From positions 7,274 through 71,273 of the forward strand of contig SIBU01000002.1 of NCBI GenBank assembly GCA_009695005.1: a stretch of DNA of 64,000 bases, given 5' to 3'. Positions within the stretch are counted from its first letter, which is position 1, and the number at the start of each line of letters is the position of its first letter. This stretch comes from Candidatus Tayloriibacteriota bacterium. GTDB taxonomy: Bacteria; Patescibacteriota; Minisyncoccia; Phycocordibacterales; SIBU01. Below the pieces are notes generated by a model. That model saw only the letters and a program-made list of their open reading frames with translations, was not told the origin of the DNA and did no database searches. Made by a program: the position numbers and the translations under genes. Shown here in pieces: positions 2,200 through 50,890 of the stretch.

Positions 2200-3690
2200 A
2201 TGGAAAATTATTTTGATAAATTATATCTTTTCGGTAAAAGGTTTCCCTTGCGGAGTTTTTTTCTACTGTCTGGTTTTTTGTTTATGATTTTATTTTCTCT
2301 ATTTCATTTGACTACACAGCCGAGACTTTGGCTTGATGAAGCGAAGAATATTGAGATTGCCCAAAGTTTCAACACTTCCGGTAAATTTGATATGGAGCTT
2401 TCTTTGGGACATTTCAGTGAAGTACCCCATCTTTTGCAATCTACAGGTTATCCGGTAACTATTCCTTTGGCGTTGACGTTTAGAATTTTTGGTTTTGGTC
2501 TGGTTCAGGCGCGCTTATTTATGCTTGCCTGGATGATTGTCGCCATGTTGGTTTCCTTTATTCTTTTAAAAAAGATAATCGGTTTTCGGTCGGCAGTTTT
2601 TTCGATACTGTTGATTGTGACTTTTGCGTCATTTTATGACAACGGTCGGCCGATGATGGGGGAGATTCCAGGGTTTCTATTTTTAGTTTCAGGTTTGTAT
2701 TATTGGCTTTGCCGTCAATCCCCGTGGATAGCAGGAGGTTTTTTTAGTTTGGCTGTAGTTTCTAAACCGTCTGTATATCTTTTGATAATTCCAACATTGT
2801 TTTTTGTACTCATATTTAGAGGGCAGAGAATTAAGAATTTGATGGTGTTTTTTGCTTCGATGTTACCCGCAGCTCTAGGTTGGATTTTTTTGGTAATGAG
2901 TCAGCCGTTTTCAAAGTTGGCCTGGTTTCAAATTATAGATATGTATGGAAATCCGTATAACGCAATTCCTATAATGCAAAATATTCTAAATAACATTATT
3001 TCCATTCCGCGTACTTTGACAATTGTTTATTTCGGTATTTTTTTTATTTTACTACTGTTGGTTAGGATAGGATTTAGAAAGGAAAATTATAATTTGTCTT
3101 TGGTATATGATTTTGTATTGATTTATTCTCTGTTTGCTTTTTTATATTACCTCCGAAGTCCCGGATGGCTACGCTATACGATCGTGTCGGAACTTTTGAT
3201 TTTAGCTATTCTGCCGAATGCTTTAGAAATTATCCTTTTGTATTTTTCAAGGAAATTTAAAAACGCACGGATTTTTAAGGGAGAAATTGTTTGGTATGCG
3301 AGCCTTGTTTTTCTGGTTGTCTTTCAAATTTTTCATTTATTCAATGGCGCGAAAATTTATTTCTCGGATAGTGATATCATGACCGCTAAATACATAGAAG
3401 ATAAATATTTTATGGAAACTGTAGGTTATGTGGACGCGCTTAATTTGGCGATTTTTAAGGATCGTAAATTGAGATTTATGACGATCGAAGGATCGGTGGT
3501 GCCAATTTTAAAAAGTAATAATACTTTTAAAAATGTTTCCCTTTATTCTCTCGCTGTTCTTCCAGAAGTTTTGGTCCTCAAAAAAGATATCGTTACTTCT
3601 TTTGCAGACGCCAATGTTCTCAATGACAATTACAAGGTGGACACTGTTATGAACGGTTATGCTATTTACGTTAAGAGTAAGATTGAGTAG
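2200..3690 (+). CDS. Polytopic membrane GT-C glycosyltransferase, ArnT/PMT_2 (GT39/GT83)-like
   Basis: Has 10 or more hydrophobic segments. The N-terminal loop motif (PRLWLDEAKNIEIAQSFNTSGKF) matches the ArnT/PMT family DE motif. It sits next to ArnC-like GT2 synthases. Confidence 0.5.
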   Translation: MENYFDKLYLFGKRFPLRSFFLLSGFLFMILFSLFHLTTQPRLWLDEAKNIEIAQSFNTSGKFDMELSLGHFSEVPHLLQSTGYPVTIPLALTFRIFGFGLVQARLFMLAWMIVAMLVSFILLKKIIGFRSAVFSILLIVTFASFYDNGRPMMGEIPGFLFLVSGLYYWLCRQSPWIAGGFFSLAVVSKPSVYLLIIPTLFFVLIFRGQRIKNLMVFFASMLPAALGWIFLVMSQPFSKLAWFQIIDMYGNPYNAIPIMQNILNNIISIPRTLTIVYFGIFFILLLLVRIGFRKENYNLSLVYDFVLIYSLFAFLYYLRSPGWLRYTIVSELLILAILPNALEIILLYFSRKFKNARIFKGEIVWYASLVFLVVFQIFHLFNGAKIYFSDSDIMTAKYIEDKYFMETVGYVDALNLAIFKDRKLRFMTIEGSVVPILKSNNTFKNVSLYSLAVLPEVLVLKKDIVTSFADANVLNDNYKVDTVMNGYAIYVKSKIE

Positions 3691-5113
3691 GCTTTTCTGT
3701 CGGAGTACCAGAAGTTTGTTTTGGATTTTTTAAATCTTTAACCTCTTTGACTTGAAGCCAAATTGAGATAATTATAAAAAATTCCGAGAAAATATATTTT
3801 GATGAATCAAGGGCTTTGCAGAACGACGAAGGGGAAGCAAAATCTCTCCATCCTAAATACATACAATCTGGTACAAAGGCGAGTAGTAAAGCAACAACCA
3901 ATAAGACCCAGGGAATGGTTCGCATCCGATCTTTTGACCAAGGGTGTTGTCCGACAGCGAGAGTTGACAGTGGAATAATCCATACAGCATTCATTGTCCA
4001 GGTCAAAGGTCCAAAAAGCATTAAAATCATAAGAATTGAATACCAATAAAGAAATTCCTTTTCGCTTGAAAGTCCCAAGTTTTCGATTTGAATTTTTTTG
4101 AGAGCCATATATGCCACGGGCAAAAATAAAGCCAAAAGCATTATAGAGATCAGTGTGGGACTGATTTGCCATTCACTGTTTAGATCGTTTGCTCTCATTG
4201 CGATAAAACGTGCTAAAGAGGCGTTGGGAGCGAATGACAAGTGAATGCCTTTAAACCATTGACCGTCCTTTTCAAGGCCGTAAGTGCTCCCCGGATTGCG
4301 TTCATTGTAATATTTTTCAAAATAACTATCGGGCAGTTTCATTTCCGATGTTCCGGCTTCTCCGTATTTTGCAATTCTTGGAAATTCCTTGACGATATAA
4401 TCAGAAACTGAACTTGGTCCGAGAAGAAGTGCTGTTAGAACGACAATCGTTACTCCTCCAAAAAAATATCCCGCTAGTATTTTCCACTGCTTTCTTAAAA
4501 TAAAAAAGATAGCTACGAAGCCTATGTGTAATTTAACCAACGTTGCGAAGGTCCATATAAAACCGGAAACAATTTCTTTTCGGCTTTTTCCAACCGCTAA
4601 GGCTATGGCCGAGATCGCAAGTAGGAGGGTCAGGTTATCGATCTGTCCGCGTTCCAGAGAAGTTAAAAGCGGAAAAAACCAGGAAGTGTAAATTCCAACT
4701 ATGAGATATTGCCAAAAATTTAATTTAAGTTTGAGAGATCGTATGGTGATAAAAATCGAAACTAACAAGCAAGTTAGAGAAAAGTACATCCAAAAAAACT
4801 TTGCAATTCCGTAAGTCATAAACGACGCTATCAGTTCGAAAGGTATTGCGGCTAGAGGAGGGTATAGATATCTGCTGTGAACGTAACGATCAAGACCGTC
4901 CCATATCGGTGGATTGGCGATTATGCCGTTTTTATATAGTGGAAAATCAAAAAGTAAATTTTGGCCGGTAGTGTAGTAAACCGAAAAATCCACTTGAACA
5001 CTGTCTTTTCCGAAGATGGCTATTTTTTCCTGTAATCTTATGATGGAAAATAATAAAAATATGCAAAGACTAATTTCGCAGATAATTTTTATTAATTTAG
5101 TGTTTGTTTTCAT
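3671..5113 (-). CDS. Polytopic membrane protein, putative GT-C-type (DUF2029/GT87-like) glycosyltransferase
   Basis: 501-aa ORF (3671..5176) with many TM helices. The ORF-track start at 5176 is TTG; the first ATG (MKTNTKLIKI..., 5111-5113) is used here. It converges on the upstream gene with a 20-bp overlap. Confidence 0.4.
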   Translation of the reverse strand: MKTNTKLIKIICEISLCIFLLFSIIRLQEKIAIFGKDSVQVDFSVYYTTGQNLLFDFPLYKNGIIANPPIWDGLDRYVHSRYLYPPLAAIPFELIASFMTYGIAKFFWMYFSLTCLLVSIFITIRSLKLKLNFWQYLIVGIYTSWFFPLLTSLERGQIDNLTLLLAISAIALAVGKSRKEIVSGFIWTFATLVKLHIGFVAIFFILRKQWKILAGYFFGGVTIVVLTALLLGPSSVSDYIVKEFPRIAKYGEAGTSEMKLPDSYFEKYYNERNPGSTYGLEKDGQWFKGIHLSFAPNASLARFIAMRANDLNSEWQISPTLISIMLLALFLPVAYMALKKIQIENLGLSSEKEFLYWYSILMILMLFGPLTWTMNAVWIIPLSTLAVGQHPWSKDRMRTIPWVLLVVALLLAFVPDCMYLGWRDFASPSSFCKALDSSKYIFSEFFIIISIWLQVKEVKDLKNPKQTSGTPTEKPTQSYS

Positions 5114-5327
5114 AAAACTATTTTTGTGACCAAAATCTGTCACCAAGTGCAAAAAGGGTTTTTCTGTATTGTTCAACTTGCTTTCCTTTCATTACTCTGT
5201 CGTTTTACTCGGTCTCACTTATTGCTGGGTTGTAAGAATAATCGAATGGTACTGAAGAAATCCTTGAACCGTACACTCTCTTTTGTTTCTTCTAGGTCGA
5301 TCGATTCCATGGATTATTCATTTAAAT

Positions 5328-6218
5328 TTATTTGTAACGAGATAAAAGATAATTTTCTAAGGATTTTTTCCAGGAAATTGTTTCTAAATTGTCAGAGTGC
5401 GCAAGGACAGTGCAAGTCGGACGTTTAACAGAGTGGGTTTTTTTGAATGAACATTTTTTTATGAGTGAAGTGTCGAGCTTAAGAATTTTTGCGACTTCCT
5501 TTGCAATGTCGTATTTAGTTACACCTTGTTCTTTTTTTGAGGCGCCGATTTGATAGATTTTTGTCGTATTAGGTTTTTTTTCAGATATAAGTTTAAGGGC
5601 TACATTGACTATATCTTTTGTCCAAACAGGAATATTGAATTGGTCATTTATCGCTTCGAGTAATTGATTTTGCTTAAGTGTTTTGACAACCATATCGATA
5701 AAAGTGTCACGACCGTCTCCATACAACCAACCGGCGCGTAAAATATAAAAATTCTCTGAAAAGTTTTTTCCGATTTGCTGAACGATTTGTTCCCCACCAC
5801 ATTTTGACCAACCGTAGACGTTTACAGGTGTAGGTAAATCATTTTCCACATACTTTTTCTTACTTCCACCGAAAATGTCGGAAGTACTGATTTGAATAAG
5901 TTTTGTGTCGGTAAGGTTGGATTCCTTGATTACCTCCGCGATGATCCCAGCTCCAATGGTATTGACGTTCCATGCGGTAAGCGGGTTTTTTTCACAGAAA
6001 TCTACATTTACCACAACCGCACAGTTTACTACGGCGTTGGGGCGATTTTCTGAAATTATTTTAGTGACTACTGTTTTGTCAGTTATGTCAGCGGATTCTT
6101 TGGAGTAAGCAATAATTTCCAAACCATTAGGTTTTCCAGATAAAGAAGCGAATTCTTTTCCAAGTAAACCATTTGAACCAAAGACAACAATTTTATTGTT
6201 AGTTTTTCTTGTAGTCAT
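5328..6218 (-). CDS. RmlD-like NAD(P)H-dependent NDP-4-keto-sugar reductase
   Basis: N-terminal Rossmann motif (KIVVFGSNGLLG). Has STSDIFGG (compare RmlD STDYVFDG) and YGWSK (YxxxK). ATG at 6216-6218. Confidence 0.5.
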   Translation of the reverse strand: MTTRKTNNKIVVFGSNGLLGKEFASLSGKPNGLEIIAYSKESADITDKTVVTKIISENRPNAVVNCAVVVNVDFCEKNPLTAWNVNTIGAGIIAEVIKESNLTDTKLIQISTSDIFGGSKKKYVENDLPTPVNVYGWSKCGGEQIVQQIGKNFSENFYILRAGWLYGDGRDTFIDMVVKTLKQNQLLEAINDQFNIPVWTKDIVNVALKLISEKKPNTTKIYQIGASKKEQGVTKYDIAKEVAKILKLDTSLIKKCSFKKTHSVKRPTCTVLAHSDNLETISWKKSLENYLLSRYK

Positions 6219-7389
6219 GGGAGAAGATGGATATTAGAATTTTTATATCTGAGTTCGACAGGTCGGGGTTATTTCCAAAATAAATTCCTTGTTCGTGGAT
6301 TAAAGAGGAAGTGGAATTTATAATTTGTGAACCTTTCATATATTTTTTAAAAAAAGGCTGTTTAGTCATGTCGCCACCAACTATTGGACGAATTTCCACT
6401 TTTTTATTGCAGGCTTCGATTATGGAGTCGCGGATTTCCTTTGTCTTGCAGATGATAGGGAAGGCGAAATTGGAAATAACATCTAAATGGTTAGATTGAA
6501 TTGGATAATATAAGTCAGTGCGTGTGTAGATTGCCTCAGCAAATTTTTTGAAATTACTTTCGCGTTTCTTGACGATAGTGTTTAAGTGGGAGAGTTGAGC
6601 GTTTCCAAGAAAGCCGGATATCTCGGTGGGCCTTAGGTTGTAACCTAGATCGTAAAATGTGTATTTTGCGTAAAGGGAGTCTGACACGCCAAATTCTTTT
6701 CTTATTTTTTTCTGTCCATCCTCTCCTAGGTTGCGGTCCCAGCCGTGGGCGCGGACAATTTTAAGCATTCGTGCTAACTTTGGATCGTCTGTGCAAACGG
6801 CGCCACCTTCAATTGTTGAGAGGTGGTGGGCAGCAAAAAAAGAAAAAGTGCTGGCAAGACCAAAGTTTCCAAGTTTTTTTCCTTTATAAACTGTACCAAG
6901 TGCCTCACAAGTATCCTCGAGAATCAAAATGTTCTTTTCTTTGCAGTAGGATTGAATTTTTTCCATATCGCCGCAAAAACCTAGAAGGTGAGTAATGAAA
7001 AGAACTCTGATAGGATTTTTTTCTGTTGCACTTTTGAAAGTTCTTGATGAAACGTTGAGGGTTTCGATTTCTACGTCAACAGGTATAGCCTTGAGACCAA
7101 GTTCAATAATCGGCATAACATTTGTCGCCCAAGTTAGTGCAGAAAAAGCTACTGAGTCTCCACGTTTTATAGTGCCAAGATTTAAAAGGGTTTGAAGAAT
7201 TGCTAGATTAGCAGAGCTTCCGCTGTTAAAAAAAACAGCATGCTTTCTGTTTTGCCATAATGCAAAAGAGTTTTCAAATTTTTCGCACTCCTTTCCGAAA
7301 CTTAGGGCGTCTGTTTTTTCTATGAAACGACAAAGTTTCTTTTTTGTGCCCTTTTCCTTGAAGAATACATTTTTGACAAGTGGTATCAT
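6199..7389 (-). CDS. PLP-dependent sugar 3-dehydratase, ColD/E1-like (DegT/DnrJ/EryC1 fold with His replacing catalytic Lys)
   Basis: DegT-family core (SGSSANLAIL ... FSFFAAHHLSTIEGGAV ... RAHGWDRN). The Schiff-base position is His (FFAAHH), as in ColD and E1 dehydratases. RAHGW is a ColD-type motif. ORF start at 7413 is TTG; the first ATG (MIPLVKN..) is at 7387-7389. Confidence 0.55.
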   Translation of the reverse strand: MIPLVKNVFFKEKGTKKKLCRFIEKTDALSFGKECEKFENSFALWQNRKHAVFFNSGSSANLAILQTLLNLGTIKRGDSVAFSALTWATNVMPIIELGLKAIPVDVEIETLNVSSRTFKSATEKNPIRVLFITHLLGFCGDMEKIQSYCKEKNILILEDTCEALGTVYKGKKLGNFGLASTFSFFAAHHLSTIEGGAVCTDDPKLARMLKIVRAHGWDRNLGEDGQKKIRKEFGVSDSLYAKYTFYDLGYNLRPTEISGFLGNAQLSHLNTIVKKRESNFKKFAEAIYTRTDLYYPIQSNHLDVISNFAFPIICKTKEIRDSIIEACNKKVEIRPIVGGDMTKQPFFKKYMKGSQIINSTSSLIHEQGIYFGNNPDLSNSDIKILISIFSHDYKKN

Positions 7390-7462
7390 ATTTTGGCTGA
7401 TTTTAGGGGTCAATTGTTGCCTAATGCTAATGGATGGTGGCCGTGATATTATACCTTACACT

Positions 7463-8188
7463 ATGAAAGAGATATCTTCAAATGGGACGGAGTTGTCTGT
7501 AGTTTTGCCTACTTACAACGAAAGAGAAAATCTTGCGGTGCTAATTCCGGAAGTTGAAAAGGCTTTTGGTCATTTGGTGTTGGAAATTATTGTGGTTGAT
7601 GATGGTTCCATGGACGGGACAAAAGAATTGTTGTCAGAGTTAAATGTGACTTTTGGTAATATTAAGCCGATATACAGAAAATCTTTGGGGGGAATTGGCT
7701 CTGCCTTACGGGATGGTTACAACAATGCTTCTGGAGAATTTATTCTTTCTTCCGACGCCGATATGTCTTTCCCCGTAGGCGACATGGTGAAGCTCTATCA
7801 AAAAATTAAGGAAGGGTATGATTTTGTTACGGGATACCGTCACGGAGGAGAAGGTTATTACGAAAAAAGAACTGCCTCTGTGAAAATTAAATATATTATC
7901 AGTCGATTTGGCAATGTAGTGGTAAGAAAGCTTAGTGGAATTAAAGTTCGTGATTTTTCGGCTAATTTCAGGGTTATTCGTCGCGTAAAATGGCTGGAAC
8001 TTAAAACTAAGGAGAATACAAACAGTTTGCTTTTTGAAATGATAGTCAAAGCCACTCAAAAGGGATTTCTTATTACGGAAATACCCGTTCATTTTCATGA
8101 AAGAAGATTTGGAACATCAAAACTGAATCTTTGGAAGGAAGCTCCTAAATTTTTGATTAAGGCTTTAAAGTATGTGTTTTTTAAGTAA
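7463..8188 (+). CDS. GT2 polyprenyl-phosphate sugar synthase-like glycosyltransferase (DPM1/ArnC family)
   Basis: LSVVLPTYNERENL, VVDDGSMDGT and SSDADMSFP motifs. The longer ORF (7322) overlaps the divergent gene, so the start is placed at the internal ATG 7463 (MKEISS..). Start is uncertain (7424/7430 also possible). Confidence 0.55.
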   Translation: MKEISSNGTELSVVLPTYNERENLAVLIPEVEKAFGHLVLEIIVVDDGSMDGTKELLSELNVTFGNIKPIYRKSLGGIGSALRDGYNNASGEFILSSDADMSFPVGDMVKLYQKIKEGYDFVTGYRHGGEGYYEKRTASVKIKYIISRFGNVVVRKLSGIKVRDFSANFRVIRRVKWLELKTKENTNSLLFEMIVKATQKGFLITEIPVHFHERRFGTSKLNLWKEAPKFLIKALKYVFFK

Positions 8189-8221
8189 AAGGTTTGTAAA
8201 CTGCCAAGACAGTTATGAAAG

Positions 8222-9289
8222 ATGAATTTAGAAAATAAGACAATCTGCTATTTTGGTTTTTATCGACCTACCGCCCCTAGGGACAAGGTGTATTTTGATG
8301 GCCTGAAGGAAAGGGGATATAAAGTAATTGAGTGTGTAGATAATTCACCGGGTCTTTTGAAATTTTTTAGATTGGCAAAAAAACTTCGATCACTTAAAGG
8401 CGAATACGATTTTTTGTGGGCAGGGTATTTAAGTGGAAGAGTTGTATCAGTTGCGTGGTTATTTTCTCAGAAGAAAATTTTTTGGAACGTTTTAAATTCT
8501 CAGTATGAAAGAGTGATATTGGACAGAGGAATGCATTCCAAATTTTCTTTAAGAGCCTGGATTTTTTGGTGGATAGATTTTTTTTCCTTTCATCTGTCGG
8601 ATGTATCTTTGGTGGAAACGGAAAGTCAGAAAGGCTACTTGGTCAAAGAGTTTAAAATTAATCCAAAAAAACTTGTTGTTGTTTTTACGGGCGCTGACCC
8701 TGACGTTTTTTATCCGGATCCAGAAGTGGCAAAACGAGAAAATTTTACCGTCATGTTTCGTGGCATGTTTCTGCCGGAAACTGGTGTGGAGTATATTTTG
8801 GAGGCGGCGAAACTTCTTCAAAAAGAGTCGATTGATTTTGTTGTGATGGGCTGGGGGGCGTCTTTGCTAAAAATCGAAAGTCTTTTGAAAAGTTACAATC
8901 TTCCTCGGGTCACTCTTAAGACAGAGTTTCTTCCGCCGAAAGTTTTACGAGAACTTATTCTTTCTTGTCACGTAATGCTTGGGCAGTTTGGTAATCATCC
9001 TCATCTTGATCACACTATTCAAAATAAAACTTTTGAGGCCCTTGCGCTTGGTATGCCATATATTACGAGAGATTCAAGAAGTAATCGTGAACTTTTGGTG
9101 GACGGAGAGAATTGCGTTTTTGTGCCACCCGCTGACCCTCATTCCATCGCCAATGCTATTCTTGATCTTAAAAACAGAGAAGATTTTCGGAATAAAATTG
9201 GGTTAAGCGCGAGAACGACTTACTGCGAAAAAGCTTCACCTGAAGTTTTGGCAGAGCAAATTGTCGAAATTATTCAAAGTGCAGTATAA
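8222..9289 (+). CDS. GT4 (GT-B fold, Glycos_transf_1) glycosyltransferase
   Basis: C-terminal GT4 signature (FVVMGWGAS..., EALALGMPYITRDSRSNRELLVDGENCVFVPP). ATG at 8222. Confidence 0.6.
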   Translation: MNLENKTICYFGFYRPTAPRDKVYFDGLKERGYKVIECVDNSPGLLKFFRLAKKLRSLKGEYDFLWAGYLSGRVVSVAWLFSQKKIFWNVLNSQYERVILDRGMHSKFSLRAWIFWWIDFFSFHLSDVSLVETESQKGYLVKEFKINPKKLVVVFTGADPDVFYPDPEVAKRENFTVMFRGMFLPETGVEYILEAAKLLQKESIDFVVMGWGASLLKIESLLKSYNLPRVTLKTEFLPPKVLRELILSCHVMLGQFGNHPHLDHTIQNKTFEALALGMPYITRDSRSNRELLVDGENCVFVPPADPHSIANAILDLKNREDFRNKIGLSARTTYCEKASPEVLAEQIVEIIQSAV

Positions 9290-9638
9290 AGCCAGATATT
9301 ACGCGTAATTGATTATCTCGCGGGTCGTACGGATGACTCTTCTAAGGAAAGTTTGAAAACCCTAGGCTTTAAAATCCCATTTGTGGTGAAGCCTTTAGTT
9401 GCATCCATCCGGGCTAACTACTAAACGAGCATTTTTAAGCTGACAAAAGCAAGCTGTGGGTACCAACAATATTTGTTTCAACAAAAAACTCGGTTTTTCT
9501 ATTCAAAAATCTATTGGGATCTCCGCGACGAAATGAATGATGTGTGTAGGGTGAAAGACGAAAAATGTTTTTTAAGGTTTTCTATGTCTCTTTTATATTT
9601 GGTTAAGTAAGATCAAATATAATTTTTTTCTGCACATG

Positions 9639-10613
9639 TTATTCGTAATTTATTGTTTCAACCCTTCCTGATTTAGATGATTTTATAATCGCATCTAGTA
9701 TGATTGCTTGGTCGAGGAAGGCTTTGTTGTATTGAAGGTAAGACTCGGGTTTAATTTTTGCATAATGGTTAAACATTTCTAGAAAAGAATCGGAAGATTC
9801 TACTGGAATATCTTTGGCAATGTTGCGCGATCTGTAAAGGATGTTATTAGTGTAATCTTTCGGCGCCGTAAACGCTCGGTCCAAAGACAAATAAAAACCA
9901 GAACCCCACAGGTCTAAATTATTTCTATATTCCAGGTCAAAACCGATATCACCTTGTAAAGTTTTGCTTTCTCCGAAATCAATTGTAACCGCGGCTAGCA
10001 TCGGGATACCACTCTGTTTATTGATACTTACCGAACAGTACACCTTTTTCGGTCTACTGTTGAAATAATACTGACCAACCGAAACTAAGTAGGGGCCTAA
10101 GTCAAAGAGACAGCCTCCTCCAAGTTTTTTGTCGTTGCGGTAGTTATTTTTTTCTAGTGGAGGAAATCCAAATTGAACACTAATTTTATTCAGTGAAGAA
10201 GTTTGAGATTCTAATATAATTTTCAACTTTTGATGCTGGCTGTGATAAAGGTAGGGGATTGACTCAAAAATCAATAATTGATTATTTGCCAATTGGTAGC
10301 ATTTTTTCGCTTCTTTTTTTGAGAGTACTGCAGGCTTATCCACGATAATATTTAATTTTCTTTTCAAGCAGTAATCAATCAATTTGTAGTGTGATGAATT
10401 TTGCGTGGAAATATAAACGGTGTCACAGCCACTTTTCTCGATCGCTCTCTCATAATTATCAAAAATAGGTAGGTCGGAGTTGATTTTCGAAGCCTTGGTT
10501 TGTGAAGCGATGCCTACTAAGGTCACTTTTTTATGATTTTTTATAGCAGGAATTATTGCCTTTTGGGCAATAGCTGAATATCCAATGAGTAGAATTTTAT
10601 TTTTTTTTATCAT
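9639..10613 (-). CDS. Gfo/Idh/MocA-family oxidoreductase, putative NDP-hexose 3-ketoreductase (KijD10/OleW type)
   Basis: N-terminal Rossmann (KILLIGYSAIAQKAIIPAI). GFO_IDH_MocA layout (..DTVYISTQNSSHYKLIDYCLKRKLNIIVDKP..). Its stop lies 6 bp from the 2,3-dehydratase gene start, which implies a coupled function. Confidence 0.5.
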   Translation of the reverse strand: MIKKNKILLIGYSAIAQKAIIPAIKNHKKVTLVGIASQTKASKINSDLPIFDNYERAIEKSGCDTVYISTQNSSHYKLIDYCLKRKLNIIVDKPAVLSKKEAKKCYQLANNQLLIFESIPYLYHSQHQKLKIILESQTSSLNKISVQFGFPPLEKNNYRNDKKLGGGCLFDLGPYLVSVGQYYFNSRPKKVYCSVSINKQSGIPMLAAVTIDFGESKTLQGDIGFDLEYRNNLDLWGSGFYLSLDRAFTAPKDYTNNILYRSRNIAKDIPVESSDSFLEMFNHYAKIKPESYLQYNKAFLDQAIILDAIIKSSKSGRVETINYE

Positions 10614-10619
10614 TTAGCG

Positions 10620-11348
10620 TCAAAGTGGACTGAGGATTGCCTTTACATATGGATTAACTATATTATCAACTAACATTAAAGCTTTTATTTCCGATAGAGA
10701 TAGCCAAATAAAATTATCATTTTCTTGCAGGGGAAGTTTAACTCCTGGCTTCAACAGATTTAATCTGCTCACGTTGCTTTTTTGCCAGAATCTTCCACCC
10801 TCCTCATTCTGACTGGCGGAATAAATAATTGTTGTATCGGGATGGTCAATATACTCGCTAAGAATAGGTTTGTGGCCCGAGTGATGTTGTCTCAGGTTAC
10901 TCATCGTTGCTTGGATAGAAGGTCCGAATTGAATTCTATTAATATTTCCACCCTCAAACTTGGCCTGCAATAAAAATTTAATCTCCCCTTTAATTTCTTG
11001 ACACAAGATAACCAAGTAGCCCCCTTCTTCCTGGACTATAATTGGCTGATCCCAACCAGAGACCTCGGAACTATTCGCATTTTGCACTCTTATTCCTTGA
11101 ACTGAAAAAAAATGACTGGTGCCTGCTTTGTGTCTGACCATCCCTTCTTTCTCTGAGTAAATCCAATCTTTCAATGAAGAAATTGGGAGTATCTGAATCG
11201 TCGATTGGTTTTTTGCTCTTTTTTTATGTAACCAATCCGTAGCGCGTTTAATATTCACTTTTGCTTTTTTCTTGTTAGAAAAAACTTTTGACCTTAGTTC
11301 ATTTAACCTTTTAGTATAAACTCGGGAGTTATTTTTAACCGTTTCCAT
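10620..11348 (-). CDS. NDP-hexose 2,3-dehydratase-like protein, single domain (half the size of EvaA/TylX3)
   Basis: Motifs HFFSVQGIRV, DQPIIVQEEGGYLVIL, LLQAKFEGGN, SQNEEGGRFW and FIWLSLSEI align (from memory) with the C-terminal Nudix-like repeat of 2,3-dehydratases. Only one repeat is present (242 aa). Confidence 0.5.
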   Translation of the reverse strand: METVKNNSRVYTKRLNELRSKVFSNKKKAKVNIKRATDWLHKKRAKNQSTIQILPISSLKDWIYSEKEGMVRHKAGTSHFFSVQGIRVQNANSSEVSGWDQPIIVQEEGGYLVILCQEIKGEIKFLLQAKFEGGNINRIQFGPSIQATMSNLRQHHSGHKPILSEYIDHPDTTIIYSASQNEEGGRFWQKSNVSRLNLLKPGVKLPLQENDNFIWLSLSEIKALMLVDNIVNPYVKAILSPL

Positions 11349-11358
11349 GGTGGAATAA

Positions 11359-11387
11359 ATTATATATAGACCTATTTATATTTGCAA
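11359..11387 (-). promoter_or_regulatory. Candidate sigma70-like promoter for the 2,3-dehydratase/3-ketoreductase unit (-35 TTGCAA, 17-nt spacer, -10 TATAAT, ~10-nt leader)
   Basis: Minus strand reads TTGCAA-N17-TATAAT-ttattccacc-ATG(11348). Hexamers are at 11382-11387 and 11359-11364. AT-rich background makes chance matches likely. Confidence 0.3.
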
Positions 11388-11623
11388 ACTTGTATAAAAG
11401 ACTACCCATTTTCCCACTTTCTGAATGGCCGTTGATATTATTTTTGTAAAACAGGAAGCGATTTCAAACGTCAGTTTTCACTGAAACAAGTTAAGTTTTC
11501 TTTCAGGCTCAAGAATGAAAATAGCAGGTGCACGAACAGGCCCGCCACCGATATGATTTTGAATTTTTTTAAACCGCTTTACTAAATTGAGTGTGTTGAT
11601 TCCAGAATTACGTTAATCATGTT

Positions 11624-12487
11624 TTACGCTTTTCTATCAAACACACTATTTGATTTCAGTATTTTTGAAATACTCTGGGGGTAATAGTTCAAAGTGGTGT
11701 ATGTTTGAATACAATCCATAGATAAATTTGCTAATCTGATATCTTTTGATAAATCTAATTCTTCGGGGATAATCAGACTTGTGTCAAAATTAAAATGTTC
11801 TGCTATTTTTAAAGCAAAATCATATCTAGATAGACTTTCTGATCCTGCACAGTGAAATATTCCTCGATGCTCCTTTTCGATAATAATTCGAAGCATATTA
11901 CATAAATCTCCAATATAAGTAGGATTGTTTATTAGATTTACATAGGCATGAAAATTTCCCTCCCGTTTTAATTTCGTGTATACCTCATCAACAAAATCGT
12001 TTTTTGTTCCAAAAATTCCGCCTATTCGTACTATGACAAAATCAATCAAATTATTTCTTATCAGGTTCTCAGTTGCCAGTTTATCTTTCCCGTATTGCGT
12101 AGTTGGCACTGCAACTGATAATTCATCATGTTTATGAACGCCGTCAAAAACAGCATCTGTTGAAATATAAATCAATTTTATTTTATTTTCAAAACACTGT
12201 GAAATGATATTTTCTGAAGCTTCAAAATTAATTCTTCTTGAAAAAATCTTATCTGCTTCACATTTAGCCATATCCTTGCTTCCAGCAAGATGGAGAATAA
12301 TGTCTGGGGAAACAGATTTAATATATTGATTTGTTTTTATAAAGTCAGTTAAATCAACGTTACGGACATTTTCATGAATATGGGTATTAGAAAATCCAAT
12401 AGGAATAATTTGGTTTTCCTCGTCAGGAAGCATTCGCAATAATTCGCTACCGATATAACCAGTTGCACCGGTCATCAGAATTTTCAT
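11624..12487 (-). CDS. RmlD-like dTDP-4-keto-6-deoxyhexose reductase
   Basis: MKILMTGATGYIGSEL Rossmann. ISTDAVFDG (RmlD STDYVFDG motif). 287 aa is RmlD size. ATG at 12487. Confidence 0.6.
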   Translation of the reverse strand: MKILMTGATGYIGSELLRMLPDEENQIIPIGFSNTHIHENVRNVDLTDFIKTNQYIKSVSPDIILHLAGSKDMAKCEADKIFSRRINFEASENIISQCFENKIKLIYISTDAVFDGVHKHDELSVAVPTTQYGKDKLATENLIRNNLIDFVIVRIGGIFGTKNDFVDEVYTKLKREGNFHAYVNLINNPTYIGDLCNMLRIIIEKEHRGIFHCAGSESLSRYDFALKIAEHFNFDTSLIIPEELDLSKDIRLANLSMDCIQTYTTLNYYPQSISKILKSNSVFDRKA

Positions 12488-12760
12488 TTTATCATTTAGG
12501 AAAATTTTGATAATAACACTGAGACAATTAACAACTTCTTTCGATATTCTTAATTTGTTGACCTGTAAATATTTTCCGTATCCAGTGAAAATCTGGGGTT
12601 AAACTCATCGGAATTGGGAGTAAAAAATATATCCATCATGTACGTTTCGCTTTTTTGAAAGCAGATGTCATGTTAAAGCCCGTAAATCAGTTGCCGTCTG
12701 GGACAAGAATTTTTTTCATAAGGTTGAATATAATTTAATTACTTACCGTTCGTCTTAAAA

Positions 12761-14122
12761 TTATTTCTTGATTTTCTTGGTTGTTACTGTTTTTTTATAT
12801 TCCTCCGCTCCCACAATTCGAGGAAAGGGAATGGGGATAATAAATTTACCTCCTTTGTCGCTAAAATCTTTGAGGTTGGCAATGATTTCCTTGGAAAAAT
12901 TCCAAGCTAGAAGTAGTGCATAATCCACCCCTTCGTTTATGAGTTCTACGTCGGAGACGACAGGAACGTGTCCACCGCCATGGCCACCCGGTGCGAAGCG
13001 GCCAATTTTCAAGCGCGCTCTTTCCGAAATAAGTTTGATGTGTCGGTTTGAAACTCCGATGTAATTTAAAAGAGTCATGCCTTTGGCAGGAGCCGAAACC
13101 ACCGCCAACTTTTTTCCTTGGTGTAGTAGTTTTTCAATAATCGTCATGAGTTCATCGCGATTTTTTCTAACACGTTTGGCAAAATTAAGCATGGTTTCCT
13201 TTTCGTGGAGTTTTGATTCTTTTTCAGCTTGAAGGAATTTTTGGACACTTGCATCAATCGAACGTGTACCGGTCCTTGCTATAAACACTCTGATGGAACC
13301 GCCATGAATATTGGTTTCTCTAATCATAAATATTTCCAAACCAAATTTGGCGAAGAAAGAAATGAGGGGTTTTATGGAAAGGTAAGACAGGTGTTCATGA
13401 TATACGGTATCGTATTCAAGATTTTCGACGAGGTGCTGAAAATACGGCGACTCAAAGATGAAAACCCCGTTCTTTTTAAGGATATATTTTACCGCGCGCA
13501 TTATTTCGTGCAGATCATCTATATGCGCGAACACGTTTGTGCCGACAATGACGGAAGCTGCGCCGACAAGTTTTTTGACTTTTTTGGCGCTTTCCATGCT
13601 GAAAAAATCGCAGATAGTCTTAATACCGTGTTCTTTGTTGGCTATTGCAACGATATTCGGAGCGGGATCAACCCCGATGGTTTTCATTCCCAGCTCTTTG
13701 AAAGATTTAAGAAGTGTGCCGACATTGCTTCCGATATCGACAATAACGTCATCTTTTTTTAATGAAAGGTCGGCGGTGATGGATTCCGCGAAACTGCCCC
13801 AGTGAGCCTGACCCGTTTTGGTCATCGATTGCTCGTAAGGATAGTCTAGTTGATATAGGACTTTCGGGTTGACTATATGACTTAACTGCGAGAGTCCGCA
13901 ATTTTCGCATAAAAGGACTCGTAGCGGATAAGAAATTTCCGGGATATCTAGTTCGTGCGCCGCTCTGAATTGGTCCGCGGGTGGAGTTAAACCCATGTCA
14001 AGATACAAGAAGAGTTTAGGGCTTTTGCACATTCGACAGACGGATGTTACACGATAGAGGTCTTTTACCGCTTCAGCCTGGATGTCTTTTTGCTTATGAT
14101 TTGTTTTTCGGTTGATAGTCAT
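12761..14122 (-). CDS. NDP-hexose C-methyltransferase, TylC3/NovU/EvaC family (Zn-ribbon + MTase + C-terminal domain)
   Basis: N-terminal CxxC...CxxC ribbon (CRMCKS...CENCGLSQL). Class I MTase motif (VIVDIGSNVGTL). Typical family length. ORF start at 14137 is TTG; the first ATG is at 14120-14122 (MTINRK..). Confidence 0.6.
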   Translation of the reverse strand: MTINRKTNHKQKDIQAEAVKDLYRVTSVCRMCKSPKLFLYLDMGLTPPADQFRAAHELDIPEISYPLRVLLCENCGLSQLSHIVNPKVLYQLDYPYEQSMTKTGQAHWGSFAESITADLSLKKDDVIVDIGSNVGTLLKSFKELGMKTIGVDPAPNIVAIANKEHGIKTICDFFSMESAKKVKKLVGAASVIVGTNVFAHIDDLHEIMRAVKYILKKNGVFIFESPYFQHLVENLEYDTVYHEHLSYLSIKPLISFFAKFGLEIFMIRETNIHGGSIRVFIARTGTRSIDASVQKFLQAEKESKLHEKETMLNFAKRVRKNRDELMTIIEKLLHQGKKLAVVSAPAKGMTLLNYIGVSNRHIKLISERARLKIGRFAPGGHGGGHVPVVSDVELINEGVDYALLLAWNFSKEIIANLKDFSDKGGKFIIPIPFPRIVGAEEYKKTVTTKKIKK

Positions 14123-14401
14123 ATAATAAGATGCCAAATTCTTGCATATTTTTTTCTGATTTGCAACATCTGTAATGTATCACGACCTTCGCAATACATG
14201 AAGTAAAATTATGTATGTTCCAGACACGATAAATTTCCAAATCTTGCTTTACTTTAGACTAGGGATGCAATAAAGACCTTTCCTAAAAGATTCCGACTCC
14301 AAAAATAAATATGAGTAAGGTGAAGGAAGTGGAAGAAAATAGCAGAAAAAATTTCGTGTAAAGAATCAGCTAGGAAAAGCCTGTTTAAAAAATTGTGAAA
14401 A

Positions 14402-15667: not shown

Positions 15668-15862
15668 ATTATGTTTCGATAATGGTAGCATGTATATATA
15701 GGGTTTTCCACATATACTGTAACAATCGAAAATTGCTGTAGTTACAAGACGATATGATGTGTGAAGCGGATTTCTCAGCGATTTAGCCCTACTTACTAAA
15801 TTAAATAGTTAATTATTTCATCAAGTAGGATATGAAAGAGTGCTGTGCTAGTATTGTTGACT

Positions 15863-16654
15863 ATGAATGCACAAATTGTATCGACCTTGGGTCCATCTAG
15901 CGGAAGCGAGAAAGTTTTGGTAGCAATGATTAAGGGAGGTATAAATATAGCTCGATTAAATTTTTCATGGGGTACTCATGAGGAGCATGGCTTACGTGTA
16001 GATAACCTTCGTAAGGCTGCCAAAAAACTTAAAAAGAGGATCCTAATCCTTCTGGATTTGTCTGGGCCAAGAGTGGCTGCTAAAGGTGGACATCATTTTG
16101 ACGGTGTAAGTAAAAAAATATTGACTAAAAAGGATATAAACGATCTTAATTTTGCTAAGAAATATGGTGTTGATTACGTTGCCCTTTCTTATGTCGGATG
16201 TGCGGCAGATGTGGTAGATCTTAAAGAGGAGTTGAAGAAAAAAGGCGTTACCGCAAAAGTAGTTGATAAAATTGAAAGAAAGAAGGCTTTCGATAATTTG
16301 GATGAAATTTTGAAAGAAGCTGACGCCATTATGATTGCCCGCGGAGATTTGGGGAATGAAATTCCTTTGGAAAAAATTCCTTACGTTCAAAGTATTATTA
16401 TTGCCAGAGCCAAGGAGGCGGGGAAGCCGGTGATTACTGCAACAGAAATGATGATATCAATGGTTGAAAAATCAAGACCTTCACGTGCGGATGTTTCGGA
16501 TGTTACAGTTGCAATTTTAACCGGAACAGATGCTGTTATGCTTTCCGAGGAGACAGCTATCGGTAAGTATCCTGTTGAAGTTGTGCAGATGATGAAAAGA
16601 ATAGCCGTAGAAGCTTCTCGTCAGCCGTTCGCTAAACCTCTCAATTCTTTTTAG
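15863..16654 (+). CDS. Pyruvate kinase-like protein, A-domain (TIM barrel) only; lacks B (lid) and C (allosteric) domains
   Basis: PK signatures: IVSTLGPSS, INIARLNFSWGTHEEH, LLDLSGP, MIARGDLGNEIPLEKIPYVQSIII, PVITATEMMISMV, PSRADVSDVTVAILTGTDAVMLSEETAIGKYPVEVV. Only ~17 aa lie between DLSGP and the second barrel half. The protein ends at ~264 aa. ORF start at 15845 is GTG; ATG at 15863 gives the canonical MNAQIVSTLGP. Confidence 0.6.
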   Translation: MNAQIVSTLGPSSGSEKVLVAMIKGGINIARLNFSWGTHEEHGLRVDNLRKAAKKLKKRILILLDLSGPRVAAKGGHHFDGVSKKILTKKDINDLNFAKKYGVDYVALSYVGCAADVVDLKEELKKKGVTAKVVDKIERKKAFDNLDEILKEADAIMIARGDLGNEIPLEKIPYVQSIIIARAKEAGKPVITATEMMISMVEKSRPSRADVSDVTVAILTGTDAVMLSEETAIGKYPVEVVQMMKRIAVEASRQPFAKPLNSF

Positions 16655-19564: not shown

Positions 19565-19566
19565 GA

Positions 19567-29815: not shown

Positions 29816-30012
29816 GCTTTGTAGTATATAGCTTTCGGCAAATGTTTCCAATTAGTATTCGCCAATATTCAACTATTAATTTTATGAAAATGTTGCTATT
29901 GAGCAGTAGGTTGTTAACTTTTTGCAATAAATCTTTTCACGGTTTTGAGTTGTTTGTTGACAGCGTTGAAGGAGAAGTCGTCTTTAAATATTTAAAGTGA
30001 CAATCTTTTTAT

Positions 30013-31113: not shown

Positions 31114-31526
31114 TTTTGTATTAGCTTTTTAAACTCCTCGTAATCACGAATATAGTCTTTTTCGTCATAGACTGTGTCGGCGAGGACGAGCAATATCGTA
31201 TTTTTTTTGAAATTTTTCATCTTGTGCCACAAATATGGTTCAAGAAGCAATCCTTCACTGAGTTTAGAAAGTGTAATTGTTAATTTCTCCTTTCCACTAT
31301 CTAATTCTACGTCGCATTCTCCTGTGATTACGATAAGAACTTGTCTCATTTTGTGGTGGGTATGGTCACCTCGCACATCACTTTCCTTCATGCCTTGAGT
31401 AATAAGAGTTTTTTTTACAACAAATGGAATTTCATTATCTTTCGGTCCGAATTGAATAGGTGTAAGTGTGCCGGTACTATTACTAAATGATGAAAAATTT
31501 ATTATTTTGTATAAAGTGTTTATCAC
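31110..31526 (-). CDS. NDP-4-keto-6-deoxyhexose 3,4-ketoisomerase, FdtA/QdtA-like cupin
   Basis: [11 protein letters not shown]...FVVKKT...VRGDHTHHK...[17 protein letters not shown] matches the FdtA pattern (tlTPIeF..RG.HAHK..Qvl...G). GTG start at 31526 is needed to keep the N-terminus. Confidence 0.5.
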
Positions 31527-31533
31527 GGTAGGG

Positions 31534-42974: not shown

Positions 42975-43009
42975 AAGATGTGGTATTGAATCCACGTCTT
43001 TTTTATTTT
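42975..43009 (+). terminator. Candidate rho-independent terminator after AKR gene
   Basis: aagatgtgg-tattgaat-ccacgtctt followed by ttttattttc (one mismatch in the stem). Confidence 0.35.
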
Positions 43010-43932
43010 CTTATATTAGGATAATTTTCAATAAACCACCGAACGGTTTTTTTGACACCTTTTTCTATAGACGTAAATTTGAAATCAGGTTTGTATTTCA
43101 AAAATTTTGTGGTGTCGGATGGTTTACGGAATTGACCATCTGGTTTTGAGGAGTCAAGAGTAATTTTACCTTTAAAATTCATTTCCTTGGCAATCATTTT
43201 GACCAAATTTTCGATGCTGACTTCAGCTCCAGAGGATAAAATAATAGGGGAGGGTTCATTGTAATTTTTTAGAGCCCAAATTGCCAGTTTTCCAATATCA
43301 TCTGACAGGACAAATTCGCGGAGTGGTTTGCCACTGCCCCATACATAAAGATCCGTATTGTTCTTTTTGGCTAAGTAGCATTTCTGGATGAGAGATGGAA
43401 CCACATGTCCTTCAGTAGGGCTGAAATTATCATTAGGACCATAGATGTTTGTGGGTATGGCGACGATAAAATTGCAACCCCATTCGTTTCTGTAGGCGTT
43501 ACTTTGTACCTCAAGCATTCTTTTCGCGTAGGCATAGCCAAAATTTGAAGGATGGGGCGGACCATTGTGAAGATTTTTTTCGTTTAAGGGGTATTCGCAT
43601 TTGTCCGGAAAGATGCAAGTGGACATAAAGGAAATTAATTTTTTGACATCGGTAAGTCTGGCTGCTTCCAAAACATTTATATTAATCATAATGTTGTTAC
43701 GGAAGTATTCTCCGGTGTGCATGCTGTTGCCCCCGATACCTCCAACTTGGGCAGCCAGATGAATAACGTGAGTGGGCTTGTGTTTTTTGAAAATTTTAAG
43801 TGTTTGATTGAAATCAGTTAAATCACCGTCTTTGCGCGATAAAAAAATCGCATTAGGAACTTTCAGTCTTTTAAGAGCTGAACCGATTAGTCCACTTCCG
43901 CCCGTTACCAATATTTTTTCTGGATTTTTCAT
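43003..43932 (-). CDS. GDP-4-keto-6-deoxymannose epimerase/reductase paralog (Fcl/ColC-like)
   Basis: KILVTGGSGLIGSAL, HLAAQVGGI, FMSTCIFPDKCEYPLNE, YAYAKRM and IPTNIYGPNDNF all follow the Fcl pattern. It is more divergent than the fcl copy next to gmd. Confidence 0.55.
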   Translation of the reverse strand: MKNPEKILVTGGSGLIGSALKRLKVPNAIFLSRKDGDLTDFNQTLKIFKKHKPTHVIHLAAQVGGIGGNSMHTGEYFRNNIMININVLEAARLTDVKKLISFMSTCIFPDKCEYPLNEKNLHNGPPHPSNFGYAYAKRMLEVQSNAYRNEWGCNFIVAIPTNIYGPNDNFSPTEGHVVPSLIQKCYLAKKNNTDLYVWGSGKPLREFVLSDDIGKLAIWALKNYNEPSPIILSSGAEVSIENLVKMIAKEMNFKGKITLDSSKPDGQFRKPSDTTKFLKYKPDFKFTSIEKGVKKTVRWFIENYPNIRK

Positions 43933-48818: not shown

Positions 48819-49766
48819 TTAATTTTTTACCTTTATCTCCTTTTGTGATTTTTGAAACCAATCGAAGGTTTCTCTTATACCTTCTTCTAATGTCTTTTTG
48901 TGGTGCCAGCCTAAGGCATGAATTTTGGAAACGTCTAATAGTTTCCTAGGTGAGCCGTCGGGTTTTGTCTTGTCCCATAAAATTTTACCTTTAAATCCAG
49001 TAATTTTTTTAACAAGTTCGGCCAGAGCTTTGATAGAAATATCTTCATTTGTCCCGACATTGATGATTTCGCTGTCGTTATAGTGCTTCATAAGAAAAAT
49101 TGCAGCATCGGCGAATTCATCGACGTGAAGAAATTCACGCTTTGCTTTGCCACTGCCCCATAAGGTTATTTCATTTTGATTATGCTTTTTTGCTTCATAA
49201 AATTTTCTGATGAGAGATGGTAGTACGTGGGAATGTTCAAGATCGAAATTATCATTTTGGCCGTAAAGACTGGTCGGCATTGCAGATATGAAATTGGTTC
49301 CGAATTCCTTGTTGTATGATTGACATGTGATAACTCCAGCAATTTTGGCGATGGCGTAGGCTTGATTTGTCGGTTCGAGTGGTCCTGAGAGTAGGTACTT
49401 TTCTTTTATGGGTTGTGGTGCTAGGCGTGGGTAGATACATGAACTACCAAGGAATAGTAATTTTTTAACACCATTTTTACGTGACTGTTCTAGGACATTA
49501 GCCTGGACCATCAGATTTTCATATATAAATTCGGCTGGAAAATCCTTGTTAGCCATGATCCCACCAACTTTAGCAGCAGCCAAAAAAACATAGTCAGGTT
49601 TTTCCTGAGCAAAAAAGTCTGTAACGGATTTTTGGTCAAGAAGGTCAAGTTCAGTTCTTGTTTTAAGAACAAGATTTCTGTAACCTTCATTTTGGAGTTT
49701 TCGAACGATGGCTGATCCTACCAACCCTCGATGACCAGCTATATAGATTTTATATTTTTTTTCCAT
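48819..49766 (-). CDS. fcl: GDP-L-fucose synthase (GDP-4-keto-6-deoxymannose 3,5-epimerase/4-reductase)
   Basis: KIYIAGHRGLVGSAI, LFLGSSCIYP, YAIAKIAG and MPTSLYGQNDNF. Confidence 0.75.
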   Translation of the reverse strand: MEKKYKIYIAGHRGLVGSAIVRKLQNEGYRNLVLKTRTELDLLDQKSVTDFFAQEKPDYVFLAAAKVGGIMANKDFPAEFIYENLMVQANVLEQSRKNGVKKLLFLGSSCIYPRLAPQPIKEKYLLSGPLEPTNQAYAIAKIAGVITCQSYNKEFGTNFISAMPTSLYGQNDNFDLEHSHVLPSLIRKFYEAKKHNQNEITLWGSGKAKREFLHVDEFADAAIFLMKHYNDSEIINVGTNEDISIKALAELVKKITGFKGKILWDKTKPDGSPRKLLDVSKIHALGWHHKKTLEEGIRETFDWFQKSQKEIKVKN

Positions 49767-49786: not shown

Positions 49787-50890
49787 TTAAATATTTGATT
49801 CTGCTTTTTTAATTTTAGTCAGTATCAAATCATGAGCTACCATTTCCTTTATCAGTGTTTCAAAACTTATTTTTGGTTTCCAATCCAAAATATCTTCTGC
49901 CTTGCTTGCATCTCCAAGTAACGAATCCACTTCAACCGGCCTGAAGTATCGAGCGTCGATTTGTACGACTACTTTTCCCGTCTTTTTGTCCACACCTTGC
50001 TCTTTGATGCCTTTGCCTCTCCACTCAATTTTGATTCCTATTTCATTAAAGGCTAGTTCAACGCATTCTCTTACTGTGTGTTGCTTGCCAGTTGCGATCA
50101 CGTAATCGTTTGGTTCCGACTGCTGCAACATAAGATACATGGCTAGCACATAATCTTTGGCATGACCCCAATCGCGTTTGGCTTCCAGATTTCCTAAATA
50201 AAGTTTTTCTTGCAGGCCCAACTTGACGCGTGCAACCGCTTCGGTAATTTTTCTGGTGACGAATGTTTCTCCTCGTCGAGGTGATTCATGATTAAATAAA
50301 ATACCGTTGACCGCAAACATTCCGTAGGATTCTCTGTAATTCACTACTGAGTGGTAGGCAAAAACTTTAGCGGTGCCGTATGGGCTGGCTGGAGCAAAAA
50401 CAGTTTTCTCGTTTTGTGGTGGGGGAGTGGTGCCGAACATCTCCGATGAAGAGGCTTGATAAAATTTAATTTTTTTACCCGCATGCTCTTCGGTGTTTTT
50501 TACCGCTTCAAGTAGTCTAAGTACCCCTAACCCTGTTACGTCGGCTGTATATTCAGGCATATCGAAAGAAACTCTGACATGAGATTGAGCACCAAGATTG
50601 TAAACTTCATCCGGGTTTACTTTATAGAGAATTTTCTGGAGGTTGCTACCGTCAATTAAATCACCGTAATGAAGGAATAATCGTGTGTTTGGCAAGTGGG
50701 GATCTTGGTATAAATGTTCTATTCTGCCGGTATTGAAACTCGATGATCTTCGGATGATGCCGTGCACTTCGTAACCTTTTTCTAGTAACAGTTCTGCAAG
50801 GTAAGAACCGTCTTGGCCGGAGATACCCGTGATTAAAGCTTTTTTTCGTAAACCAGCGACTGTTGAGGTTTTTTTGGTTTCTTTTTTCAT
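49787..50890 (-). CDS. gmd: GDP-mannose 4,6-dehydratase
   Basis: [34 protein letters not shown]...NLGAQSHV...YGTAKV...NHESPRRG. Confidence 0.85.

Follow-up and report, generated by a model that had tools for sequence, protein, structure and literature searches.

We describe a gene of a candidate-phyla-radiation (CPR) bacterium whose product has been filed as an aminotransferase but is a sugar 3-dehydratase of the ColD type. It lies at 6199-7389 in a 64,000-nucleotide stretch of Candidatus Tayloriibacteriota bacterium (assembly GCA_009695005.1, contig SIBU01000002.1). The whole of this stretch, which is part of an 86-kilobase (kb) metagenome-assembled contig, is referred to below as the window. 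NCBI holds the identical protein of 396 amino acids (aa) as 'DegT/DnrJ/EryC1/StrS aminotransferase family protein' from Candidatus Taylorbacteria (Patescibacteria / CPR), and this name is wrong. Base composition had hinted at a Leptospira rfb locus, an origin that this record of the identical protein rules out. Our overall reading, which we consider fairly probable, is that the enzyme acts on the product of guanosine diphosphate (GDP)-mannose 4,6-dehydratase (Gmd), that a reductase of the RmlD type then completes a D-series GDP-3,6-dideoxyhexose, and that this sugar is passed on by way of polyprenyl phosphate and glycosyltransferases of the GT-C fold.

Active site and fold of the dehydratase

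The target gene is genuine. Its open reading frame (ORF) runs on the minus strand from an ATG at 7389 to a TAA at 6199-6201. An in-frame TTG at 7413, which would give a longer start, is used neither in the NCBI model nor by homologues, all of which begin with MI(P/R/K)L(I/V)K. The Pfam domain DegT_DnrJ_EryC1 spans residues 16-386 at E=2e-63, far above chance, and homologues of the protein number >7,600 at E<=1e-20.

A first-pass annotation, made from the sequence alone, had read a His-His pair at the Schiff-base lysine position and an RAHGW motif, and had named a Lys at that position as the mark of an ordinary aminotransferase. The alignments placed His there. In a phmmer alignment the active-site segment FSFFAAHHLSTIEGG, in which HH is residues 188-189, pairs with FSSFYSHHIATMEGG of ColD. 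Because the PDB sequences of the ColD mutants H188K (..YSKH..), H188N (..YSNH..), and S187N/H188K (..YNKH..) fix the register, the first His of the pair, residue 188, is the one that replaces the lysine and matches His188 of ColD. His occupies the catalytic column in 93/93 dehydratase-type sequences of a 94-sequence alignment, and Lys in its sole Lys-type aminotransferase. The window itself offers an internal contrast in a DegT paralogue at 30013-31113, which has the normal Lys at the Schiff-base position. The residue preceding the catalytic His is Ala in the target, compared with Asn or Thr in transaminases. Cook et al. are said to have found in 2009 that ColD becomes a transaminase only with both S187N and H188K, a requirement on which the title of PDB entry 3gr9 bears.

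The RAHGW motif is likewise present, aligned to IRAHGWTRN of ColD, and it is invariant across a 30-sequence family alignment. At this place E1 (RfbH/AscC, the cytidine diphosphate (CDP)-4-keto-6-deoxy-D-glucose 3-dehydrase; PDB 3bcx) has FRDWGRDC. ColD and the target also have in common the DegT fold, the second His after the catalytic one, and the motifs RAHGW(D/T)RN, EDxCE, GYNxRP, and E-x-R-P; they differ in Ala187 for Ser187 and Thr160 for Asn160. Equivalents of Arg219, Glu329, and Arg331 are conserved. The Arg matching ColD Arg250 is kept in the target (GYNLRP), while it is Lys in E1 and in a second His-type DegT paralogue of the window (17407-18639). For regeneration of pyridoxamine 5'-phosphate (PMP) with glutamate in the target, the kept Arg250 equivalent is suggestive only.

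Sequence and fold searches agreed on the class that had been proposed. A phmmer search against all PDB sequences placed ColD (2gms) at the top with 2e-53, followed by E1 (3bcx) at 2e-46, and Lys-type sugar aminotransferases from ∼1e-27. An AlphaFold2 (AF2) model of the target had a mean predicted local distance difference test (pLDDT) score of 84.5 and a predicted template modelling (pTM) score of 0.88. The best PDB matches of this model in Foldseek were ColD chains, with template modelling (TM) scores of 0.80-0.84, then E1, and then GDP-perosamine synthase.

E1 shares with the target the replacement of Lys by His, the dependence on PMP, and the AHH motif. However, the iron-sulfur (Fe-S) cysteine segment of E1, DCYCAPGCDNTC, a C-x-C-x7-C [2Fe-2S] arrangement, has no counterpart in the target, where the alignment shows GWDRNLGEDGQKK. 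The 75 residues after HH contain one Cys in the target versus four in E1, and the target is ∼40 residues shorter. In E1 and SpnQ four cysteines bind a [2Fe-2S] cluster, and a reductase is required; in ColD, which has no such cluster, the enamine is hydrolysed and glutamate serves to regenerate PMP (PMC8987622). No E3-type or ferredoxin-reductase-like gene was found among the annotated genes of the window. RfbH is the best NCBIfam model for the target, yet its 223 bits fall far below the cut-off of 423. Since this score is about half the cut-off and the four cluster cysteines are missing, an identity as E1/RfbH was dropped. The target is thus mechanistically of the ColD type.

The partner reductase, the relatives, and the choice of nucleotide

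The stop of the dehydratase gene and the start of the RmlD-like gene at 5328-6218 overlap by 20 nucleotides (nt). That an RmlD-like reductase adjoins the dehydratase had been noted before, and the assignment stands, with Pfam RmlD_sub_bind at 7e-56 and RmlDs as the top PDB matches (112-122 bits). Like RmlD (dTDP-4-dehydrorhamnose reductase; dTDP, deoxythymidine diphosphate), this short-chain dehydrogenase/reductase (SDR) has the RmlD_sub_bind fold and the catalytic S/T-Y-K residues, with the motifs GSNGLLG, STSD, and YGWSK. It differs from RmlD in an NCBIfam rmlD score of 169 bits, under the 224 cut-off, in its separate clade, and in being linked to gmd and ColD-like genes rather than to rmlA/rmlB. 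The partner gene falls short of the rmlD equivalog score, and its clade shows no linkage to rmlA/rmlB/rmlC. In a motif comparison the Cys/His epimerase pair of Fcl and ColC was absent from the protein.

The reductase clade is rare; 5.8 billion proteins were searched and yielded no more than 4 close homologues. Members were found on five other contigs, here L084 to L088, where they stand beside ColD-like genes (L084, L086, L087) or gmd (L085, L087, L088). In L084 the dehydratase is 79% and the reductase 60% identical to those of the window, the two genes overlap, and genes for glycosyltransferases (GTs) of the GT1, GT2, GT87, and PMT_2 types surround them as in the window. The genes of the pair also overlap in L086 (dehydratase 74%, reductase 55% identical). 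The reductase is directly upstream of gmd in L085 (41% identity) and L088 (37%). L087, a Joint Genome Institute (JGI) metagenome contig found by scanning metagenomes with the aligned reductase clade, has at 3582-9170 an island of four genes, RmlD-like, gmd, ColD-like, and GT2, without a Fcl-like gene. Its ColD-like protein is 53% identical to the target and has both HH and RAHGW, and its GT2 (813 aa) bears a long extension at the C-terminus; flanking the island are housekeeping genes, for phosphoglycerate mutase on one side and cation efflux on the other. The island is a minimal version of the pathway proposed below. In a tree the reductase clade is apart from the RmlDs beside RmlA/RmlB in the same scan. 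These contexts, together with the tree, support the pair acting on Gmd-derived GDP-sugars, and support an RmlD-type enzyme, not a ColC, as the dedicated terminal reductase.

When one genome of each species was scanned, relatives of the target turned up at 80 loci, at 44-62% identity. Their hosts are mostly Patescibacteria (Saccharibacteria, Peribacteria, Parcubacteria), and Fuerstiella, Chitinophaga, Bdellovibrio, Pelagibacteraceae, and more are also represented. The ORFs of the loci were compared by BLAST with the proteins of the window, and counts were taken over 79 loci. A gmd gene was present in 46 of the 79, 57-68% identical to the window Gmd and at most 300 nt from the dehydratase gene in 31; a Fcl/ColC-like gene was present in 49 and adjacent in 38. 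The commonest order was gmd, ColD-like, fcl-like on one strand, and ColD has the same synteny with gmd and Fcl-like genes as this family. The RmlD-type partner described above was present in 0/79 related genome loci.

Columns conserved at >=90% in 30 gmd-adjacent members numbered 138. The target keeps 115 of these, E. coli ColD 74, E1 55, and a Lys-type transaminase 41. In a neighbour-joining (NJ) tree the gmd-adjacent family encloses the target and the relative 79% identical to it and leaves out E. coli ColD; the second paralogue of the window forms a separate clade with E1. A GDP-linked substrate for the target is plausible, supported indirectly by the synteny of both its family and the reductase clade with gmd. 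Judged by gene context, GDP-4-keto-6-deoxy-D-mannose from the Gmd of the window is the most likely substrate.

Several observations weigh against the reading as a whole. Confidence in the AF2 model is low at the His loop (residues 186-192, modelled without cofactor) and at residues 246-252, and the target is 32% identical to E. coli ColD, hardly more than the 31% to E1. The gmd gene of the window is 42 kb from the dehydratase gene and is directly followed by a true fcl, so that the supply of substrate to the target is inferred and not given by linkage. The NJ trees carry no bootstrap support. In the large clade nearest to the target, at 57-63% identity, gmd is mostly missing from the surrounding 10 kb; the flanking SDRs there are still of Fcl/ColC type, carrying the cysteine of SSACxYP and the histidine of SHVIPAL. 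One member of this clade, L004, has CDP-glucose-type genes 7-9 kb off (a glucose-1-phosphate-cytidylyltransferase-like gene at 281 bits and a CDP-glucose-dehydratase-like gene), for which reason some uncertainty about the nucleotide stays. The evidence on the reductase clade comes from six short metagenomic contigs, and enzymes of the RmlD family classically use dTDP-L-sugars. Finally, both Fcl paralogues of the window have the catalytic Cys and His, and either could make colitose.

A proposed GDP route and its competitors

In the pathway that we favour, Gmd (49787-50890) would convert GDP-mannose to GDP-4-keto-6-deoxy-D-mannose. By homology to ColD, PMP in the target would form a Schiff base with the 4-keto group of this nucleoside-diphosphate (NDP)-4-keto-6-deoxyhexose, His188 would take the C4' proton, and the 3-OH would leave. 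Hydrolysis of the enamine would give the 4-keto-3,6-dideoxy sugar and ammonia, and L-glutamate would regenerate PMP from pyridoxal 5'-phosphate (PLP), with no need for an iron-sulfur cluster or a reductase partner. The RmlD-type SDR is then predicted to reduce C4 without epimerisation at C5. Because this SDR has no Cys/His epimerase pair like that of Fcl and ColC, the product is probably of the D-series, a GDP-3,6-dideoxy-D-hexose of D-arabino (tyvelose) configuration or its C4 epimer, and not L-colitose. The GT2 at 7430-8188 would load the sugar onto polyprenyl phosphate, and the GT-C enzymes GT87 and PMT_2 would transfer it to a surface glycan outside the membrane. Nucleotide specificity, stereochemistry of the reductase, and the lipid-linked route of transfer are parts of this scheme that we infer.

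The neighbouring genes are consistent with such delivery. In the PDB the GT2 is matched best by dolichyl-phosphate mannose synthase (DPMS, 5mlz, 80 bits), ArnC, and GtrB. DPMS is a user of GDP-mannose, and transferases of the GT-C type normally use lipid-phosphate sugars. The position of GT87 downstream of the reductase is also occupied in L084. The dehydratase and GT2 genes start divergently across a gap of 40 nt (7390-7429), as they do across 42 nt in L084, and with a gap this short the promoters must fall inside coding sequence. A scan of 3400-9700 for consensus promoters and terminators gave fewer matches than shuffled sequence and was uninformative.

Known routes to tyvelose, paratose, and abequose are CDP-linked and depend on Fe-S and E3. 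The dehydratase and its overlapping reductase may instead represent an undescribed, epimerase-free GDP route, consisting of Gmd, a ColD-type, and an RmlD-type enzyme, that leads to a GDP-tyvelose-like sugar or its C4 epimer and to polyprenyl-phosphate delivery to the CPR cell surface. This is a serious possibility, which we put forward tentatively.

The first-pass annotation had seen in the target, gmd, and a 'divergent Fcl/ColC-like paralog' at 43003-43932 the complete enzymatic logic for GDP-colitose or a related 3,6-dideoxyhexose. Its gmd call is borne out by a score above the NCBIfam cut-off (Table 1). The paralogue is indeed of Fcl type; it is, however, a standard eukaryote (FX)-type enzyme, and it is 39% identical to the other Fcl of the window, at 48819-49766. 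The complete logic through 43003-43932 is not demonstrated, with gmd far off and paired with fcl and the paralogue in another operon context. Of the two products named, colitose fits less well than a related 3,6-dideoxyhexose, since the coupled partner is of the RmlD type without Cys/His. Three features had not been noted earlier: the fcl gene at 48819-49766, the second His-type DegT at 17407-18639, and the FX-type identity of 43003-43932.

A true colitose pathway could still operate if Fcl 48819-49766 or 43003-43932 served as ColC, epimerising C5 and reducing C4 to give GDP-L-colitose, the RmlD-like enzyme serving another sugar. In the related loci the ColD-like gene is usually followed by a Fcl-like gene, 50-67% identical to Fcl 48819-49766. 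Fcl 48819-49766 is a possible candidate for an alternative, ColC-like acceptor of the 3-deoxy intermediate. Known colitose clusters comprise gmd, colA/colD, colB/colC, manB, and manC (PMC5399914), which also counts for this reading. At the target locus, however, no Fcl-like ColC accompanies ColD and gmd: the Fcl-type genes are 36-42 kb away in another operon, and the partner with the 20-nt overlap is RmlD-type, a coupling that recurs in L084 and L086, while the L087 island has no Fcl-like gene. In these respects, and in its CPR host, the locus departs from that of ColD. A literature search on colitose in Patescibacteria/CPR found no paper mentioning the sugar. We regard colitose as unlikely.

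An improbable reading is that the target is a 3-dehydratase for dTDP- or CDP-4-keto-6-deoxy-D-glucose or for GDP-6-deoxy-4-keto-heptose, leading to sugars of the paratose/abequose type or to a 3,6-dideoxyheptose. RfbH is the best NCBIfam match, the JGI labels on relatives read CDP-6-deoxy-D-xylo-4-hexulose-3-dehydrase, L004 has its CDP-glucose-type genes nearby, and the window contains RmlB genes and a set of GHMP-kinase, NTP-transferase, and HAD genes. Against these stand the RfbH score far under the cut-off, the other His-type paralogue (17407-18639), which is already placed in an RmlA/RmlB operon, and the synteny of the family, which is overwhelmingly with gmd.

Still less probable is a role like that of SpnQ/UrdQ, the dTDP-4-keto-2,6-dideoxyglucose 3-dehydratases, in which the target would remove the 3-OH of a dTDP-4-keto-2,6-dideoxyhexose supplied by a 2,3-dehydratase and a 3-ketoreductase encoded nearby, and the RmlD-like enzyme would finish a dTDP-2,3,6-trideoxyhexose. 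SpnQ is also of the His type, dTDP sugars are usual for RmlD-family enzymes, and EvaA-like (2,3-dehydratase), KijD10-like (3-ketoreductase), MtmC-like, and RmlD-like genes lie 2.2-7 kb upstream of the target on the same strand. Unlike the target, SpnQ and E1 have the [2Fe-2S] motif, and SpnQ needs ferredoxin or flavodoxin reductase pairs (PMC8987622). L084, the closest relative, keeps the dehydratase-reductase pair without a 2,3-dehydratase or GFO gene, in contrast to a SpnQ-type setting. Moreover, the gene set at 9639-14137 already includes a 4-ketoreductase and seems complete in itself (mycarose-like), and the dehydratase family and the reductase clade both track gmd, not rmlA/rmlB. An ordinary sugar aminotransferase, the NCBI reading, has the DegT fold and the name in its favour and is barely credible in view of His188, the Ala before it, and the 93/93 count.

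Table 1. Genes and motifs discussed in the text, with the matches or context for each.
Feature	Positions	Strand	Basis
ColD-type PMP/PLP-dependent NDP-4-keto-6-deoxyhexose 3-dehydratase	6199..7389	-	396 aa; Pfam, PDB, and AF2 matches
His188-His189 codons	6823..6828	-	His188 (6826-6828) at Schiff-base Lys position
RAHGW motif, residues 213-217	6739..6753	-	Alignment with ColD
RmlD-type SDR, putative 4-ketoreductase	5328..6218	-	Pfam RmlD_sub_bind, NCBIfam rmlD
GT87-family (GT-C fold) membrane glycosyltransferase	3671..5146	-	Pfam GT87 4e-20; downstream of reductase
PMT_2-family (GT-C fold) membrane glycosyltransferase	2200..3690	+	Convergent with GT87
GT2, polyprenyl-phosphate sugar synthase type (DPMS/ArnC/GtrB-like)	7430..8188	+	Pfam Glycos_transf_2; DPMS 5mlz 80 bits
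GT1-fold (Glycos_transf_1) glycosyltransferase	8222..9289	+	Conserved with the module in L084
Eukaryote (FX)-type GDP-L-fucose synthase paralogue	43003..43932	-	342 bits to human 4e5y; STCIFP, GHV motifs
Bacterial-type GDP-L-fucose synthase (fcl)	48819..49766	-	NCBIfam Fcl 484 bits (cut-off 500); GSSCIYP, SHV motifs
GDP-mannose 4,6-dehydratase (Gmd), only one in window	49787..50890	-	NCBIfam gmd 578 bits versus cut-off 415

Other sugar genes of the window and wider meaning

The fcl gene at 48819-49766 follows gmd directly, the operon also has wzm/wzt, and the window has genes of the GT10 and GT11 fucosyltransferase families; on these grounds gmd and fcl primarily form a fucose pathway. The operon (43003-50890, minus strand) comprises gmd, fcl, wzm, wzt, a split transketolase, an SDR (44054-45073), and the FX-like GDP-fucose synthase. 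The N half (45951-46754) and C half (45073-46011) of the transketolase hint at a sugar branched or extended by two carbons. Together with gmd/fcl, the GT11-family (28964-29851) and GT10-family (39017-40096) genes, both on the minus strand, suggest fucosylated surface glycans in a Patescibacterium.

The second His-for-Lys DegT protein (17407-18639, minus strand, 410 aa, SSFYASHHITAGG) is E1/RfbH-like, with 312 bits to 3bcx and an NCBIfam RfbH score of 412 bits versus the 423 cut-off. The Fe-S cysteine segment of E1 is deleted in it, and such a cluster-less E1-like 3-dehydratase is unusual. Its operon (17407-21283, minus strand) also contains a short RmlA-like gene, a dTDP-glucose 4,6-dehydratase (388 bits, above cut-off), and another SDR.

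The genes at 9639-14137 (minus strand) resemble a set for a mycarose-like 2,6-dideoxy-3-C-methyl sugar, here in a CPR genome. They include an MtmC-like 3-C-methyltransferase (307 bits to 4rv9), an RmlD-like reductase, a KijD10-like 3-ketoreductase (80 bits), and an EvaA-like 2,3-dehydratase (159 bits). The last has 242 aa and a single domain; its match to EvaA, a two-domain protein, is confined to residues 41-244 of EvaA. A pair of half-size 2,3-dehydratase and GFO genes recurs at a metagenome locus (L130, 6832-8602).

Three further regions bear on other sugars. At 30013-32475 (minus strand) an FdtA-like cupin isomerase (31110-31526), the Lys-type DegT aminotransferase (30013-31113), and an RmlB-like dehydratase (31534-32475) make up a pathway of the dTDP-3-amino-3,6-dideoxyhexose type. 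A 635-aa protein at 36104-38011 (minus strand) joins NeuB (sialic/nonulosonic acid synthase), SAF, and AP_endonuc_2, a xylose-isomerase-like triosephosphate isomerase (TIM) barrel; this gene adjoins an MptE-like gene and, with CTP_transf_3 at 51271-51954, points to a nonulosonic acid pathway. A short ORF (∼265 aa) with a pyruvate-kinase domain at 15845-16654 (plus strand) lies in the middle of the glycan locus and may be truncated or repurposed.

By itself the target is a fairly ordinary deoxysugar enzyme of a known kind, no surprise for a specialist, and its partner is modestly new. The immediate result is the correction of a database name, from aminotransferase to dehydratase. ColD-type 3-deoxygenation is usually tied to enterobacterial O-antigens; the result places it in a very large environmental family. 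This family is common in Patescibacteria, a group with essentially uncharacterised surface glycans, which probably serve in host attachment. If an RmlD-type partner does replace ColC here, the pair would provide a GDP route to a D-series 3,6-dideoxyhexose that is simple in its cofactors and free of Fe-S; glycoengineers would find this of interest, and the map of deoxysugar pathways would gain a new branch.

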